DNA from: a virus
Taxonomy: Duplodnaviria; Heunggongvirae; Uroviricota; Caudoviricetes
IMG/VR virus record: IMGVR_UViG_2671180524_000022
Direction: 5' to 3' (one strand)
DNA length: 5,076 nucleotides
Both the position numbers and the translations under genes were made by a program. Positions 1-4,864 of the stretch are shown here, one piece after another. How positions within the stretch are numbered: the stretch's first letter is position 1; every line of letters starts with the position of its first letter. The notes beneath the pieces were generated by a model. It ran no database searches, was not told the origin of the DNA, and was given only the letters and a program-made list of their open reading frames with translations.

Positions 1-728
1 TCGAACAATATCCCGGTGCTTGTTCAGCTCCCGCAGCGCGGCGCAGACTCGCTCCCACTTCTGAACATCACTTTTCGCCCTGCGCAGCGCCAGGTTTGCC
101 CTGCGCAGGGACGGAAAAATCAGCTCATCTGCTTGCGTTTCGGTAAACGATGGCAACGGCTGCACAATGTCCGCCACAGTTTCTGTTTTAATTTCTTCCT
201 GTGTTGCGGCTTCCCGGACTGGTAACGCAGCACCTGCTGGCTGAGGAAAGGCCTTACCATCACTTTCCGTTACCAGCGCGGCTTTCGGCTCTGCTGGTAA
301 ATTATCGCCCGGCATGCAGTAACGAAATTTACCGTTCTGATTAACGCGTGCCAGCCGCCCCGTTGCGGTTACCACCGCCAGCGTGGAAGCAACCTTGCGA
401 GTACTGACGCCGAACTTACCCGCCAGTTCCTCACACGTTTTAGCACCATCCTGACCGATAAACTCAACCATCATGTCTGCGGTAACTTTTGGAGCGACCT
501 CTTCGGTTACCACATCCGGCGCTTCAGGTTGTAGTGCCTGCCCTTCGGTTACCCCGGCTTCACCTTCGACAGCCAGAAACCAGGTGTGACCCGTTTTATC
601 AACAACGCCATTTTTTTGAGTTCCCACAGTTCGTTAAGAACTTCTTCACGGCTGATATCAAGCCGCGCCGCCAGTTCAACAGAATTGGCTTTTCCCATCG
701 CTTTCAGTGCATGCAATACAGTTTCCAT
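1..728 (-). CDS. Uncharacterised prophage protein with two tandem winged-helix-like modules; reading frame broken at an A7 homopolymer (plus-strand T7 at 611-617); C-terminus lies beyond the window start. Possible pseudogene or homopolymer sequencing error.
   Basis: Minus-strand ATG at 728-726 with GAGG about 10 nt upstream (rc of 739-742). This frame reads [39 protein letters not shown] and stops at 551-549. A second minus frame is open from 633 to position 1 and reads ...[20 protein letters not shown]...[54 protein letters not shown].... The two frames overlap only in 552-633, which contains the homopolymer. My own translation; the ORF track does not show it because there is no stop in the window and the frame is shifted. 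Confidence 0.5.
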
Positions 729-753: not shown

Positions 754-1494
754 TCACATACCCTGACGTCCAACGTTTGACCGCCAGCTCTCCCAGTTAA
801 AATTCACCCAACGACCACCATTCATGGTCATACGGTCCATCACCCGATCTCCGAGGAGTGTGCTCATCGCTGCGTGATTCAGGTTCGTCAGCATTCCGAC
901 ACTACGCATCGAAGCCGTTCTGCGGTCGACTATCTGGTTCAGCGTGACCTGCTCGTTGCGCGTATCCCGCTGCATGCCAATTTCATCAAGGACCAGAAGG
1001 TCAACTCCACAAAGCTCCTGTAAAAATTTTTCCCCGGACTGGCCGTTGTCGTAGCCGTCATGCAACACGCTCATGACATCGGACACGGTGACGATAATCA
1101 CGCTTCTCCCCTTCGCCATCAGCCGATTGCCAATCGCTGCTGCCAGGTGATTTTTACCGGTACCAGGTTTACCGCTGAACACGAAGTTTGTACATCCGGT
1201 CATCAATTCATCGGCAATGGATTTCGCCTGGCTCAGAGCATGGCGCTGACCGTCGTTCTGCACCCGGTAGTTCCCGAATGAGCACTTCCTGTGAAGCGGC
1301 TGGATGCCCGCACGGTTCAGGATTTTTTCAACCCGCACCTGATGATTCAGGCGGTTAATCTCCTCGCTGCGTTTTCGTCCTTCAGCAAGTTGCCATTCCC
1401 GCCACTCCTCCACCGTCCGGTACGGTGGAACCGCCCCCTGTGGTGCAAGTCTGCGAATACGTTCAAGAACCCCAACTGCCGCAATGTTTTTCAT
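754..1494 (-). CDS. dnaC: DnaC-family AAA+ helicase loader (prophage replication protein, lambda P functional analogue; Rac YdaV-like)
   Basis: 246-aa ORF. Walker A FSGKPGTGKNHLAAAIG, Walker B DLLVLDEIG, and near-colinear similarity to E. coli DnaC as I recall it (PLHxxCSFxNYRV, NQIVDRR, GMLTNxN, LGxRVMDRM). Minus-strand ATG at 1494 with GGGGG about 10 nt upstream; lies 6 nt downstream of the initiator stop. Confidence 0.93.
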   Translation of the reverse strand: MKNIAAVGVLERIRRLAPQGAVPPYRTVEEWREWQLAEGRKRSEEINRLNHQVRVEKILNRAGIQPLHRKCSFGNYRVQNDGQRHALSQAKSIADELMTGCTNFVFSGKPGTGKNHLAAAIGNRLMAKGRSVIIVTVSDVMSVLHDGYDNGQSGEKFLQELCGVDLLVLDEIGMQRDTRNEQVTLNQIVDRRTASMRSVGMLTNLNHAAMSTLLGDRVMDRMTMNGGRWVNFNWESWRSNVGRQGM

Positions 1495-1500
1495 GACACG

Positions 1501-2463
1501 TCACCCCCTGAATCCCGGCGGTATTTCAGTGTCCGGTTCAGAAATGTGATTCACGCAACGCTGCGCGGGCGAACGCCCCAGGCGGATAACCAGTTCATCC
1601 CATTTTTCCCGGAGTTTTGCCGGACTCATGATGTTTTTTACCCAGAACGAATCCCGCTGGAGACGCCCAAACATTTCACAAATTTGTCTGTGAGTTCTGC
1701 CATCCAGCATCCGCATTGTCCGCACGTCATTGGCCCATGCAGTCCAGTTGGGTTCTTTCGGTCTCGTGATCTCGCCATCATCGCTGGCCGCCTGCTCGTA
1801 AAGACTCACGATTCGTCCCCAGATCCACTGTGCGCACACCAAATCTTCCTGACTTCCCCACTGGCGTTTTTTCGCACTGAACACAACCGCGTCAGGGTGT
1901 CGGGTTAAAAAATTCTGTTCAGCCGTCTGCGGGTCCGGTTGCGAAGCGTCCGGACAAGAAGATCTTTTATCTGACGGATCAGGTTTTAATACTGACGGAT
2001 CGGGGTCAATCATCGCCCCCCTAATCGGCAGTTTGTTATCAACAGTTGATCCATCAAAATTTGACGGGTCAACCGTTGAGGGGGCAATATTTGACGGGTC
2101 AACTGTTAACGGGTCATTTTTTGCCGGGCTAATTTTTCTTTTCGGTTTATATGACTCACGCGCCGCCGCAGCAGCTGCTTCGAGTTTTTCCACATTAAGC
2201 CGATAGATATTGCTTACATTACGCCCACCGACCTTACGCTCTTCCTTCGTCAGCCAGCCCTCTTTCGCCAGTTCTGCAATAGCCGATTTCACTGTGGATT
2301 CACTTCTTGCACCGATCTGACGCCGGATAGTTTCAATGGCAGGCCATGACACGCCCTCGTCATTGCTGTAGTCTGCAAGACGGGCCATAACCGCCACCCT
2401 GGATAAGATCATGCCGGTGAAGGCGCACCCTTCCCAGACAAGACCATGAAGCTTGCTGCTCAT
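1501..2463 (-). CDS. Phage replication initiator (lambda O analogue): N-terminal winged-helix DNA-binding domain, Pro/Asp/Ser-rich repeat linker, C-terminal domain
   Basis: 325-aa ORF in the track (GTG at 2478). ATG at 2463-2461 preceded by GGGG is the more likely start (MSSKLHGLVWEG...). The N-terminus (SWPAIETIRRQIGARSESTVKSAIAELAKEGWL) is HTH/winged-helix-like. It sits directly upstream of the helicase loader. The linker is encoded by the iteron-like DNA repeats. Confidence 0.8.
   Translation of the reverse strand: MSSKLHGLVWEGCAFTGMILSRVAVMARLADYSNDEGVSWPAIETIRRQIGARSESTVKSAIAELAKEGWLTKEERKVGGRNVSNIYRLNVEKLEAAAAAARESYKPKRKISPAKNDPLTVDPSNIAPSTVDPSNFDGSTVDNKLPIRGAMIDPDPSVLKPDPSDKRSSCPDASQPDPQTAEQNFLTRHPDAVVFSAKKRQWGSQEDLVCAQWIWGRIVSLYEQAASDDGEITRPKEPNWTAWANDVRTMRMLDGRTHRQICEMFGRLQRDSFWVKNIMSPAKLREKWDELVIRLGRSPAQRCVNHISEPDTEIPPGFRG
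1969..2120. repeat. Iteron-like direct repeats and nested palindromes inside the initiator gene, with an adjacent AT-rich tract (2116-2156); candidate prophage replication origin
   Basis: CTGACGGATC at 1971-1980 and 1992-2001 (period 21). ATTTGACGGGTCAAC at 2059-2073 and 2089-2103 (period 30). CGGGGTCAAT at 2001-2010 and ACGGGTCAT at 2109-2117. Palindromes ATCAACAGTTGAT (2038-2050) and TTGATCCATCAA (2046-2057), plus TTGAC-GG-GTCAA within each 15-mer. T-rich stretch attttttgccgggctaatttttcttttcggtttatat follows. Confidence 0.5.
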
Positions 2464-2485
2464 AAAACCCCCGAACACCGTGCTT

Positions 2486-2880
2486 TTAGTGCATCACCAC
2501 AGCATTCCCTGCCGGGCCGCCGCGATTCATCTGGTCATACAAAACAACCGCTGACGCAACAAAATCATCGACATCCTTCACCAGCCGATCCCTCCGTTCG
2601 ACGATCTCACGGTAATATTCAGAACTGTGGCTGCGCATACGGGCCACCAGCAAAGGCGGCATCGCCTTTTCGATCGCCGGTAACAGAGCCTGCATTTTTT
2701 CAACAGCATCAGGGGTGTCTTTATCCNNNNNNNNNNNNNNNNNNNNNNNNNNNNNNNNNNNNNNNNNNNNNNNNNNAGCTCGAAATACGCTTTGGTAATT
2801 TTCGCAGCCGGTACTTTTTCGCCGTCCGGATGCGCCCAGACATTCATCGCCATGCGGATGTGTTCATGCTTGATTTTCAT
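2486..2880 (-). CDS. YdaT-like protein (cII-position gene of Rac-type prophages), interrupted by the assembly gap; true length unknown
   Basis: N-terminal piece MKIKHEHIRMAMNVWAHPDGEKVPAAKITKAYFE from ATG 2880-2878, which overlaps the cro-like stop as ATGA. C-terminal piece ...DKDTPDAVEKMQALLPAIEKAMPPLLVARMRSHSSEYYREIVERRDRLVKDVDDFVASAVVLYDQMNRGGPAGNAVVMH ends with TAA at 2488-2486. The two pieces are in different frames across the 50 N, as expected for a gap of arbitrary length. The MKIKHEHI start matches my recollection of E. coli YdaT. Confidence 0.55.
2727..2776. other. Assembly gap (run of 50 N)
   Basis: 50 consecutive n characters, seen directly. Confidence 0.97.
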
Positions 2881-3179
2881 GAATCAACTCCATCAGATAA
2901 GCATGCACTACAATCACCTTCAGCATGAACTACATGTGTTTGCCCCAAACGAATGCCGCTCGCATACTCAGGCCAAATAAGCTCCCAATCATGGGGTCGT
3001 AGCTCCGCCCTACTTACTTGGCCTTCCGTCGCAGATTCGATCATAAGGGCGCGGGTTGGAGATATAGCTGTTCGTCCAGACGCCATTTGCGATAAGTAAG
3101 ATGGCGATACACCAAGTCTGGCCGCGAATTTCTTAGCATCACCAACCCTTAATGATTTAATAAACTCTTTTAATGTCAT
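2877..3179 (-). CDS. Cro-like HTH regulator, YdaS family
   Basis: 100-aa ORF. Strong SD GAGGAAGG immediately upstream of ATG 3179-3177. HTH segment AARLGVSPSYLSQMASGRTAISPTRALMIESATEGQVSRAELRP. Divergent from the repressor gene across the operator region. Stop TGA overlaps the next gene's ATG. Confidence 0.8.
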   Translation of the reverse strand: MTLKEFIKSLRVGDAKKFAARLGVSPSYLSQMASGRTAISPTRALMIESATEGQVSRAELRPHDWELIWPEYASGIRLGQTHVVHAEGDCSACLSDGVDS

Positions 3180-3185
3180 ACCTTC

Positions 3186-3272
3186 CTCGGTTTAGTGTTT
3201 TTTTGCGAGTTTAGTGTTTAATAAACCATTAAGTCAAGTATTTGCTTGTTTAGTGATTACTAAAGATAATTA
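3186..3272. promoter_or_regulatory. Divergent promoter/operator region (OR-like) between the repressor and cro-like genes
   Basis: Direct repeats GTTTAGTGTTT (3190-3200, 3209-3219) and GTTTAGTGATT (3248-3258). Palindromes GTTTAATAAAC (3216-3226) and TTTAGTGATTACTAAA (3249-3264). Plus-strand promoter candidate: -35 TTGCTT 3242-3247, 17-bp spacer, -10 GATAAT 3265-3270. Minus-strand promoter candidate: -35 TTGACT (rc of 3232-3237), 18-bp spacer, -10 TAAACT (rc of 3208-3213). Confidence 0.5.
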
Positions 3273-3276
3273 CCAC

Positions 3277-3648
3277 ATGCAAAAAAAAGAAATTCGCCGT
3301 TTACGTCTCAAGGAGTGGTTTAAAGATAAAACTCTGCCACCCAAAGAGAAGAGCTACCTATCTCAACTAATGAGTGGGAGAGCCTCGTTTGGAGAAAAGG
3401 CTGCCAGAAGAATAGAGCAAACATACGGGATGCCGGAAGGGTATCTGGATGCGGAATACGCAGAACAACCGGGGGGTTCTCCACCACATGCAGGGTTAAC
3501 GTCTAATCAACTGGAATTATTGCAGATTTTTTCAGCCTTCCCTGAGGATGAGCAACGCCAGATAATCAGCGAGTTAAAGCAGAAAAAAGAATCAATGGAA
3601 GATCTCATAGCGAGATGGATTGCGGCGCAAAAATGCCGCCGCGCCTGA
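3277..3648 (+). CDS. paaR: HTH immunity repressor at the cI position; likely also regulator of the downstream toxin-antitoxin pair (PaaR-like)
   Basis: The track ORF starts at 3214, but the ATG at 3277 (123 aa) lies just downstream of the -10 element and clear of the operator repeats. HTH segment KEKSYLSQLMSGRASFGEKAARRIEQTYGMPEGYLD. C-terminal LTSNQLELLQIFSAFPEDEQRQIISELK resembles the DicA C-terminus as I recall it. Stop TGA at 3646-3648. Gene symbol from recalled operon architecture only. Confidence 0.7.
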   Translation: MQKKEIRRLRLKEWFKDKTLPPKEKSYLSQLMSGRASFGEKAARRIEQTYGMPEGYLDAEYAEQPGGSPPHAGLTSNQLELLQIFSAFPEDEQRQIISELKQKKESMEDLIARWIAAQKCRRA

Positions 3649-3668: not shown

Positions 3669-3860
3669 ATGAATAGAGCCCTTTCACCAATGGTTTCTGA
3701 ATTTGAAACCATTGAACAAGAAAACAGTTACAACGAATGGCTGCGTGCGAAAGTAGCAACGAGCCTTGCAGATCCGCGCCCAGCAATTCCCCATGACGAA
3801 GTTGAGCGCAGAATGGCAGAACGCTTTGCTAAGATGCGCAAGGAACGGAGCAAGCAGTAA
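3669..3860 (+). CDS. paaA: Small antitoxin (63 aa), PaaA-like partner of a ParE toxin
   Basis: ATG 3669 with GGAGG at 3660-3664. Product MNRALSPMVSEFETIEQENSYNEWLRAKVATSLADPRPAIPHDEVERRMAERFAKMRKERSKQ is small and charged, consistent with a partly disordered antitoxin. Its stop TAA at 3858-3860 is 1 nt before the toxin ATG. Length matches my recollection of PaaA2 (63 aa). Confidence 0.75.
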   Translation: MNRALSPMVSEFETIEQENSYNEWLRAKVATSLADPRPAIPHDEVERRMAERFAKMRKERSKQ

Positions 3861-3861
3861 A

Positions 3862-4140
3862 ATGTTACCCGTGTTATGGCTTGAAAGCGCAGATACCGAC
3901 CTAGATGATATAACTAGTTATATTGCTCGTTTCGACATAGATGCGGCTGAACGCTTATGGCAGCGATTAAGGGGTTGTGTGCTGCCGTTATCCGAACATC
4001 CGTATTTATACCCACCAAGCGACAGAGTACCTGGCTTGCGTGAGATTGTAGCCCACCCTAACTATATAATTCTATACCGCGTAACAACATCAAGCGTTGA
4101 AGTAGTAAACGTGATCCACGCAAGACGCCAGTTTCCCTAA
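3862..4140 (+). CDS. parE: ParE/RelE-superfamily toxin (92 aa)
   Basis: ATG at 3862 in the same frame as track ORF 3766..4140. Product MLPVLWLESADTDLDDITSYIARFDIDAAERLWQRLRGCVLPLSEHPYLYPPSDRVPGLREIVAHPNYIILYRVTTSSVEVVNVIHARRQFP shows the typical ParE pattern (N-terminal helices, C-terminal ...ILYRV...VEVVNVIHARR). Translationally coupled to the upstream antitoxin. Confidence 0.85.
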   Translation: MLPVLWLESADTDLDDITSYIARFDIDAAERLWQRLRGCVLPLSEHPYLYPPSDRVPGLREIVAHPNYIILYRVTTSSVEVVNVIHARRQFP

Positions 4141-4157
4141 CTTTCACTACCAATAGA

Positions 4158-4205
4158 AACATAACAACCGCAACGACTTTATCAAAAGCGTTGTGTTTGT
4201 TATGT
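4158..4205 (+). terminator. Imperfect inverted repeat downstream of the toxin gene; possible terminator or protein-binding site
   Basis: Left arm aacataacaaccgcaacg (4158-4175) and right arm cgttgtgtttgttatgt (4189-4205) pair at about 15 of 17 positions around a 13-nt loop. No clean U-tract follows, so this is not a canonical intrinsic terminator. Confidence 0.25.
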
Positions 4206-4210
4206 CCCGC

Positions 4211-4255
4211 GGTTTAGTTTTTACTTGACTTAAGTTTAATGTTTATTAAACTAAA
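4211..4255 (+). promoter_or_regulatory. Second operator/promoter-like module (OL/pL-like), rightward
   Basis: GTTTAGTTTTT (4212-4222) and palindrome GTTTATTAAAC (4241-4251) resemble the OR motifs. -35 TTGACT 4225-4230, 16-bp spacer, -10 TAAACT 4247-4252. The TTGACTTAA...GTTTATTAAAC...TAAACT arrangement is shared with the minus-strand cro promoter candidate. Confidence 0.35.
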
Positions 4256-4570
4256 AATACCAACCCACCCCGCCCCACAGAACGCAGGGAAATACTTCGA
4301 GTTACCCGGCAGTGGTCAGGGGTTAAGTAGCCAGCCCGAGGCGTATGAACATGACGGCAGGGTTCAACTTTAATAACTATGCAGCAGTTTTTTGTTCCGC
4401 TACCCCGGCGTTAAGGGGAAACAGAGGGTTTCTCAGTGGGCGAAGTCAAACATCAGAATGGAAGGCATCCCGGGATCGGCAAAGAAGCAGCAATGGCGCT
4501 TTATATTGACATCAGCGCCATTGCAGGACAGGTAAGAGTTATCAGAGCGGTAACTAAGCGGTATGCGCCT

Positions 4571-4771
4571 TTACTTCAGAAAGTCTCTGGTGAGTGCACC
4601 GAAGATATTGTCAACGATTTCGTCATCGAACTGCGAGGACTCATCTTCAGTTACAAGGTGACCACAATTTTTGCAGATGGCTCCCGCGAAACTGTCAGAG
4701 CCCTGCGGCTTAAAGGATGTGTCAAAGACTTCGCCACCACATTCTGGGCAAGAAAACTTGATTGTATTCAT
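4571..4771 (-). CDS. Small zinc-ribbon protein (CxxC...CxxC), function unknown
   Basis: Minus-strand ATG at 4771-4769 (the track starts at TTG 4777) with SD GAGAGGAA 7 nt upstream. Product MNTIKFSCPECGGEVFDTSFKPQGSDSFAGAICKNCGHLVTEDESSQFDDEIVDNIFGALTRDFLK has two CxxCG pairs and an acidic tail. Few rare codons, unlike the overlapping plus-strand ORF. Confidence 0.6.
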   Translation of the reverse strand: MNTIKFSCPECGGEVFDTSFKPQGSDSFAGAICKNCGHLVTEDESSQFDDEIVDNIFGALTRDFLK

Positions 4772-4864
4772 AACCAATTTCCTCTCGAGTAACAGACCCC
4801 TCAGAGGATACCACCTCGCCTGACGTGGTTAAAAAGCAGGCAACGCTAACCACAAGGAGCCGAC

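Follow-up and report, generated by a model that had tools for sequence, protein, structure and literature searches.

A probable inherited frameshift, by loss of one A from an A8 run, in the DUF1627/YdaW gene of prophage CP-933P/Sp12 of Escherichia coli O157:H7

At one end of the stretch of viral DNA analysed here (5,076 nucleotides in all, referred to as the window), two minus-strand reading frames meet at a short A homopolymer, and the question raised by this locus is whether they represent a single gene broken by a frameshift and, if so, whether the break is an error of a draft sequence, an inherited lesion or a device for making more than one product. The features at issue are as follows:

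611..617, minus strand: A7 homopolymer (T7 on the plus strand), site of a 1-bp deletion from an ancestral A8
549..728, minus strand: truncated 5' ORF of 59 aa plus stop, from ATG 728 to TAA 551-549
1..627, minus strand: -1 frame carrying the rest of the DUF1627 gene, with no stop between GTG 627 and the window edge

Direct reading of the sequence gives exactly seven A residues on the minus strand (T7 on the plus strand) at 611-617, in agreement with the position assigned to the tract by the original prediction. The upstream frame starts at ATG 728, with GAGG located 10 nt upstream, and in the A7 allele the frame is lost after Lys39, to be followed by 20 unrelated residues and termination at codon 60; in the resulting 59-aa product, residues 1-39 are the authentic N-terminal helix-turn-helix (HTH) core and residues 40-59 are an out-of-frame tail. 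The -1 frame provides 209 open codons from GTG 627 to window position 1, the gene extending for approximately 42 bases past that position, and encodes the first module's wing, a linker, a further HTH-like module and the DUF1627 region, with no second lesion observed in this downstream frame within the window. Addition of one A restores GAA CTC AAA AAA AAT GGC (ELKKNGVV), the A8 codons of the intact form being AAA AAA AAT (Lys-Lys-Asn), and alignment shows A8 in E. coli 20AR0300 and phage PhiR5_2. The proposal that a homopolymer frameshift splits one gene, which needs one more base to be intact, is thus borne out both by the frames as read directly and by the close relatives, in which A8 lies within a single 771-bp gene. 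The A7/T7 run by itself is unremarkable, since the window holds three runs of seven or more (the tract at 611-617, T7 at 3198-3204 and A8 at 3281-3288); the feature that goes beyond chance is the homology carried across the run in the shifted frame.

This homology is extensive. The downstream frame matches Pfam PF07789 (DUF1627) with 323.3 bits (E 2.7e-97, cut-off 28.1) over profile positions 1-153 of 155, as compared with 327.9 bits for an intact homologue, and together with the gene neighbourhood, which is the usual one, this match assigns the gene to the DUF1627/YdaW family of prophage genes. A protein search returned 2256 homologues with a modal length of 256 aa, and the nearest intact relatives, in E. 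coli 20AR0300 (WP_021523363.1) and phage PhiR5_2, are single 771-bp, 256-aa genes annotated as DUF1627/YdaW. The observation named beforehand as refuting a frameshift, i.e., homologues organized as two separate genes, was not made: the homologues are instead single ORFs, and a two-ORF arrangement is conserved in none of them.

The Pfam model spans only residues 91-245 and leaves the N-terminal module to weaker evidence, all of it consistent with, and weakly suggestive of, a winged-helix unit of about 55 residues. This module scores 24.7 bits against HTH_11 (PF08279; cut-off 25), a domain which is precomputed on many homologues, and gives weak matches to DeoR, Crp and AsnC as well as sub-threshold matches to PDB profiles of MntR (E 0.053) and of poxvirus Z-alpha domains (E 0.16-0.68), the MntR and Z-alpha alignments passing straight through KKNG...WFL. 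An AlphaFold2 model of low confidence (pLDDT 46), built from a 27-sequence alignment in which all members are at least 83% identical, places helices at 4-11, 16-22 and 27-39 without wing strands, assigns H-H-H-E-E to residues 84-138 and has a long helix in the C-terminal part, at 200-255. The winged-helix label put forward in the original prediction is therefore retained as a weak one (HTH_11, MntR, Z-alpha), while its claim that the second module of the same protein matches the first fails: BLASTP between the N-terminal and second modules returned nothing and hhalign gave E 0.023 with a probability of 2%. A sequence match between the two modules was dropped accordingly, a shared fold class apart, and both only resemble winged-helix/HTH units. 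As to function, the literature search found nothing on ECs2274 and only incidental mentions of DUF1627 and ydaW; the sole experimental hint on DUF1627 proteins found there is the scoring of the Rac gene ydaW as a retron toxin blocker in an overexpression screen (bioRxiv 10.1101/2020.06.22.160242).

The source of the window is readily placed. Over its whole length the window shares 99.7% identity with prophage Sp12 of O157:H7 Sakai, hundreds of O157:H7 genomes match it in the equivalent region, and by this likeness it is recognized as the part of the cryptic lambdoid prophage CP-933P/Sp12 of E. coli O157:H7 that holds the immunity and replication genes. Its other features include:

754..1494, minus strand: DnaC/IstB-type helicase loader, the upstream neighbour (Pfam IstB_IS21, E 1.5e-19)
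1501..2478, minus strand: replication initiator (O-like, HTH_36), by profile match and annotation
2877-3179, minus strand: ydaS (YdaS_toxin/HTH_3), facing the Paa module
3277-3648, 3669-3860 and ~3860-4140, plus strand: PaaR2-PaaA2-ParE2 toxin-antitoxin/immunity module of CP-933P (Pfam PaaA2, E 1.7e-19; ParE_toxin, E 4.8e-16)

The gene order is O-like initiator, DnaC-like loader (annotated in Sakai as 'phage DNA replication protein'), DUF1627 and DUF977, the last lying outside the window edge, yet found in all orthologous loci. The window also holds ydaT, and 50 N occur at 2727-2776 inside this ydaT-like gene; the corresponding Sakai stretch is longer by about 30 bases (5106 vs. 5076 nt overall), and the run of N is therefore masked or unresolved rather than real sequence. 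The PaaR2-PaaA2-ParE2 immunity region is the subject of an earlier study (PMC8630535). A further A8 run (3281-3288, plus strand) directly follows the paaR2 start in frame (ATG CAA AAA AAA GAA), constituting another slippage-prone tract in a repressor-like gene of CP-933P/Sp12. A small ORF at 4571-4777 (minus strand) is zinc-ribbon-like (CxxC...CxxC, weak Zn-ribbon Pfam matches); its counterpart in strains LSU61 and DEC5B is annotated as 'ECs_2282 family putative zinc-binding protein'. Sp12/CP-933P is a defective, non-excisable prophage (PMC2669165, PMC8630535), reportedly with both its integrase and its repressor disrupted (PMC2669165). Existing annotations of the split gene differ: in Sakai the downstream frame is ECs_2274 (222 aa), starting with the GTG at window position 627, and in EDL933 the PGAP pipeline calls one pseudogene, EDL933_RS12290, 'DUF1627 domain-containing protein, frameshifted'.

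A draft assembly with a 50-N gap, in which a homopolymer (an error-prone element) appears one base short, naturally raises the possibility that the true genome has A8 and that one base was dropped, an option left open by the original prediction. We have compared a 90-nt query centred on the tract with 5426 complete E. coli genomes and found the exact A7 sequence in 287 of them, including Sakai and EDL933; in an even sample of the ranking all 26 exact matches were O157:H7-type, and all 34 of the non-exact matches listed span 91 nt, i.e., are in frame. Since 287 complete genomes, deposited by many groups, carry the exact sequence in the same haplotype, sequencing error is excluded for the A7 allele. 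At least 1000 contigs encode the exact 59-aa product (UniProt Q8X456_ECO57), 553 encode the 222-aa ECs_2274 product, and two independent IMG/VR contigs agree fully with the window, A7 included, over 721 nt (L102) and 466 nt (L105); moreover, the window is otherwise O157:H7 Sp12 sequence. Some isolated A7 copies in other haplotypes could still be errors (the IMG/VR drafts L098, L104 and L107, as well as one PacBio-era complete genome with A7 vs. roughly 125 A8 genomes of its haplotype), but for the window itself we consider an artifact to be exceedingly improbable.

The history of the allele is illuminated by its intact orthologues. The A8 version of this very haplotype is intact at 100% identity in O103:H2, O45:H2, O121 and O39 strains and, with one further mismatch to the query, in O55:H7 (DEC5B, DEC5E) and O157:H7 strains LSU61, PV15-279 and F3113. 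DEC5B and LSU61 carry the intact protein WP_000450876.1, the DNA of which is the EDL933 allele plus one A, and their prophage is orthologous, sharing the O-like protein WP_000095669.1 and the PaaA2/ParE2 pair; the DnaC-like protein WP_000788938.1 is also present in LSU61, the DEC5B copy being itself a pseudogene. The comparison of homopolymer length among homologous prophages, suggested as a check at the outset, thus gives A8 in intact genes vs. A7 in the window and in EDL933. By sequence comparison, the locus has the marks of a frameshift pseudogene, namely an intact orthologue differing by a one-base indel and reproducibility across independent genomes. Among the earlier options, a genuine pseudogene in a decaying prophage is the one that gains ground: the DEC5B and LSU61 orthologues are identical but for A8, and the prophage is defective (PMC2669165, PMC8630535). 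LSU-61 represents an intermediate in the stepwise model of O55:H7 to O157:H7 evolution (PMC3309690), and the simplest history would be one A8 to A7 deletion on the line of descent to typical O157:H7, at a time when the prophage was already in place. Other lesions are seen in the same sister lineages: the O55:H7 DEC5B locus (L110) has internal stops in the DnaC-like loader (3735-4475) and in antiterminator Q (8810-9499), and the O157:H7 LSU61 locus (L109) has one in a DUF551 gene (6018-6323). Sister lineages lose different genes of this prophage independently, which is a picture of ongoing decay.

A different account of the same alleles would be a phase-variable contingency tract, in which reversible A8/A7 replication slippage switches the gene on and off in populations. 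In its favor, no fewer than three local haplotypes show A7 (the types of O157, of L098 and of L104/L107/2014C-3338), and the tract has therefore been mutated, or mis-sequenced, more than once. In IMG/VR, 17 contigs have A7, most of them being of the O157 haplotype or mosaics thereof (see below), and three have other immediate flanks (L098; L104/L107). Among complete genomes, the L104/L107 haplotype is found with A7 as an exact copy once (strain 2014C-3338, NZ_CP027452.1 4685469-4685637) vs. roughly 125 with A8, so that A7 makes up 1 in about 126, which speaks against switching; no exact copy of the L098-type A7 haplotype was found in complete genomes, and a scan of genome contigs yielded four loci, none of them informative for the tract. 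No A9 alleles occur in IMG/VR, the uninterrupted run is absent from most family members, and the state of the tract follows clonal descent, with A8 in O55:H7, LSU61, PV15-279 and F3113, and A7 in every one of the O157:H7-type genomes sampled. Variation of tract length within the clone, as expected of a phase-variable locus, was not seen, A8 being confined to early-branching or other lineages in a comparison covering 26 of the 287 exact matches. Phase variation thus appears highly improbable. By the sequences compared, shortening of the A8 run (or its misreading in sequencing) would have happened on more than one occasion, though seldom, which fits an ordinary mutational soft spot over a switch.

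The mosaicism of the A7 contigs is centred on one further feature of the gene:

263..312, minus strand: 7-SNP patch relative to the EDL933/Sakai A7 allele (codons ~140-156), where the window carries the consensus/paralogue allele

These seven clustered SNPs are the sole differences from the EDL933/Sakai allele in the 728 nt of the gene within the window, and they give the window P140, D142, E147, L152, E155 and S156 where EDL933 has S140, G142, D147, P152, K155 and N156. The extent of the patch varies among IMG/VR A7 contigs, being the same as in the window in L102 and L105 and partial in L092, L097 and L100. The patch probably arose by gene conversion from another prophage copy, and its varying extent points to short conversion events that recurred between the DUF1627 paralogues of different prophages. 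A reading of the EDL933-specific residues as decay that followed the frameshift was rejected, as intact A8 alleles (locus L014, LSU61, DEC5B, O103:H2) share them.

Could the two parts nevertheless be made and be useful as a functional split gene, comprising the 59-aa HTH peptide and/or the 222-aa protein starting at GTG 627? Some annotators indeed call both ORFs ('DNA-binding protein' Q8X456 and ECs_2274), the restriction of the DUF1627 model to residues 91-245 makes the C-terminal part separable, and the downstream ORF is undamaged. However, the sequence upstream of GTG 627 (GAAGAAGTTCTTAACGAACT) is without a Shine-Dalgarno-like element at a usable distance, and translational coupling cannot help, because the stop of the upstream ORF lies 76 nt past this start. 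The 3' part (the second HTH-like module, the DUF1627 region and the long C-terminal helix, ~217 codons) is probably scarcely made, as judged from these start signals. In addition, the first module has lost its wing, PGAP annotates a single pseudogene here, and in so young a clone an intact ORF is no sign of selection; an undamaged downstream frame is what is expected for a young clone, and it also fits retained function. On balance, a functional split gene is quite unlikely.

The remaining option of the original prediction, a slippage-prone tract producing two isoforms, would require the A-run to be a selected slippery site for programmed recoding (transcriptional +1A or ribosomal -1) giving a short and a long product. 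Two routes would lead to precisely ...ELKKNGVV..., a slip of tRNA-Lys by -1 on A AAA AAA and one additional A in the mRNA; slippage can rescue disrupted ORFs at A/T runs (PMC1088944, PMC5009743), and frameshifted pseudogenes in Salmonella show low-level expression as 'pseudo-pseudogenes' (PMC9122581). We have surveyed the tract in 89 gene copies (88 fetched loci plus the window), 86 of them in frame and three with A7:

Uninterrupted A8 (25 AAAAAAAATGG, one AAAAAAAATAG), KKN: 26 copies
A7 (window, EDL933, Sakai), frameshifted: 3 copies
AAAAGAAAT / AAAAGAAAA, KRN / KRK: 55 copies
AAAGAAAAT, KEN: 1 copy
AAAATAAAT, KIN: 1 copy
CTGAAAAAGGCT / CTGAAAAAAGCT, KKA: 3 copies

Among the 86 in-frame copies the run is broken up in 57, by AAAAGAAAT/AAAAGAAAA/AAAAGAAATGAC (KRN, KRK), AAAGAAAAT (KEN), AAAATAAAT (KIN) and CTGAAAAAGGCT (KKA), and there is no sign among the 89 copies of selection for an uninterrupted run; nor is the two-ORF arrangement conserved, the nearest relatives being A8 and in frame. 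Bacteria use, or select against, A/T runs of about 9 nt, sometimes 8 (PMC1088944), as compared with the 7 nt of this unconserved tract, which falls short of what programmed transcriptional slippage with conserved split ORFs, as in IS elements, mxiE and Thermus dnaX, would call for. For ribosomal slippage, the zero-frame codons CTC AAA AAA ATG provide C_AAA_AAA rather than an X_XXY_YYZ heptamer, and the downstream RNA folds no better than its shuffles (111-nt fold, z 0.42; 125 of 200 shuffles fold at least as well). In-frame A8 alleles have the very same flanks, which leaves no room for a stimulator adapted to A7. Transcriptional insertions in E. coli climb exponentially with A/T run length; the transcriptome-wide survey of Traverse and Ochman recorded 0 transcription errors restoring the frame of a pseudogene (PMC5574713). 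Programmed recoding of the A7 tract is not supported, and we regard it as scarcely credible.

Unprogrammed slippage is a separate matter. A seven-A run can give rare +1A transcripts, and the gene may therefore not be completely dead, with occasional low-level synthesis of full-length protein. A composite reading may be entertained on this basis, in which the A8 run of certain DUF1627 alleles is a recurrent soft spot, struck independently in at least three haplotypes, and the A7 allele of O157:H7 is a 'pseudo-pseudogene' that yields mostly the 59-aa wingless HTH peptide and a trickle of full-length protein via +1A or -1 slips. We consider it unlikely as a whole; if true, it would mean heterogeneous, low-dose expression of a prophage protein related to Rac YdaW.

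Overall, the evidence assembled here very strongly favors a genuine inherited loss-of-function frameshift, in which one A was lost from the A8 run of the DUF1627/YdaW gene of CP-933P/Sp12 and the resulting allele spread to fixation in typical O157:H7. Replication slippage would most likely have removed the A from AAA AAA AAT, at a time when the prophage was already resident in the O55:H7 to O157:H7 lineage. Translation from ATG 728 would then yield the 59-aa peptide, in which the three-helix core is kept and the predicted wing is lost; the 3' part, having no good ribosome-binding site of its own, would be poorly expressed, and full-length protein would be made at most in traces, via +1A transcriptional slippage or a -1 ribosomal slip. 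This loss may have been tolerated because the prophage is defective and paralogues exist: intact DUF1627 genes are present in other O157:H7 prophages with the same gene order (e.g., WP_000450888.1 in strain TB21-1), and redundancy from them could relax selection and probably buffers the loss.

That the gene is frameshifted is already known from its RefSeq/PGAP flag, and the lesion as such is ordinary gene decay in a crippled prophage. Its interest is in showing that a frameshift resembling a draft-assembly error can be a real clonal marker, the A8 to A7 deletion separating typical O157:H7 from O55:H7 and from the LSU61-type intermediate and adding one more dated lesion to the decay of CP-933P/Sp12. 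For annotation, it implies that the 59-aa 'DNA-binding protein' (Q8X456) and the 222-aa ECs_2274 are two halves of one pseudogene.

A side-by-side comparison with known systems reveals both likenesses and differences. The genes rescued by slippage at A/T runs (Baranov et al. 2005, PMC1088944, with the apoB A8 cited there; PMC9122581) have in common with this locus a single-base deletion in an A run and a frame that a +1A transcript would restore. Here, however, the run is of 7 nt and the split arrangement is unconserved, rescue being a possibility. The programmed -1 frameshift of dnaX employs A_AAA_AAG, an upstream SD-like element and a downstream hairpin. It resembles the present case in its A-rich slippery stretch of lysine codons and in the -1 direction, but the heptamer found here is non-canonical in frame, is not accompanied by a stimulatory hairpin and is unconserved in homologues. 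Much closer are the intact orthologues WP_000450876.1 (DEC5B, LSU61) and WP_021523363.1 (20AR0300), which represent the same gene in the same place after the O-like and DnaC-like genes, the difference being that their A8 gives one 256-aa protein. The closest counterpart is EDL933_RS12290 of CP-933P (equivalent to the ECs_2274 region of Sakai Sp12), which is the same in locus, A7 tract and neighbours and is 99.0% identical over the 728 nt of the gene held in the window (99.7% for the whole window), and from which the window differs by its 7-SNP patch (312-263), returning six residues to the family consensus.
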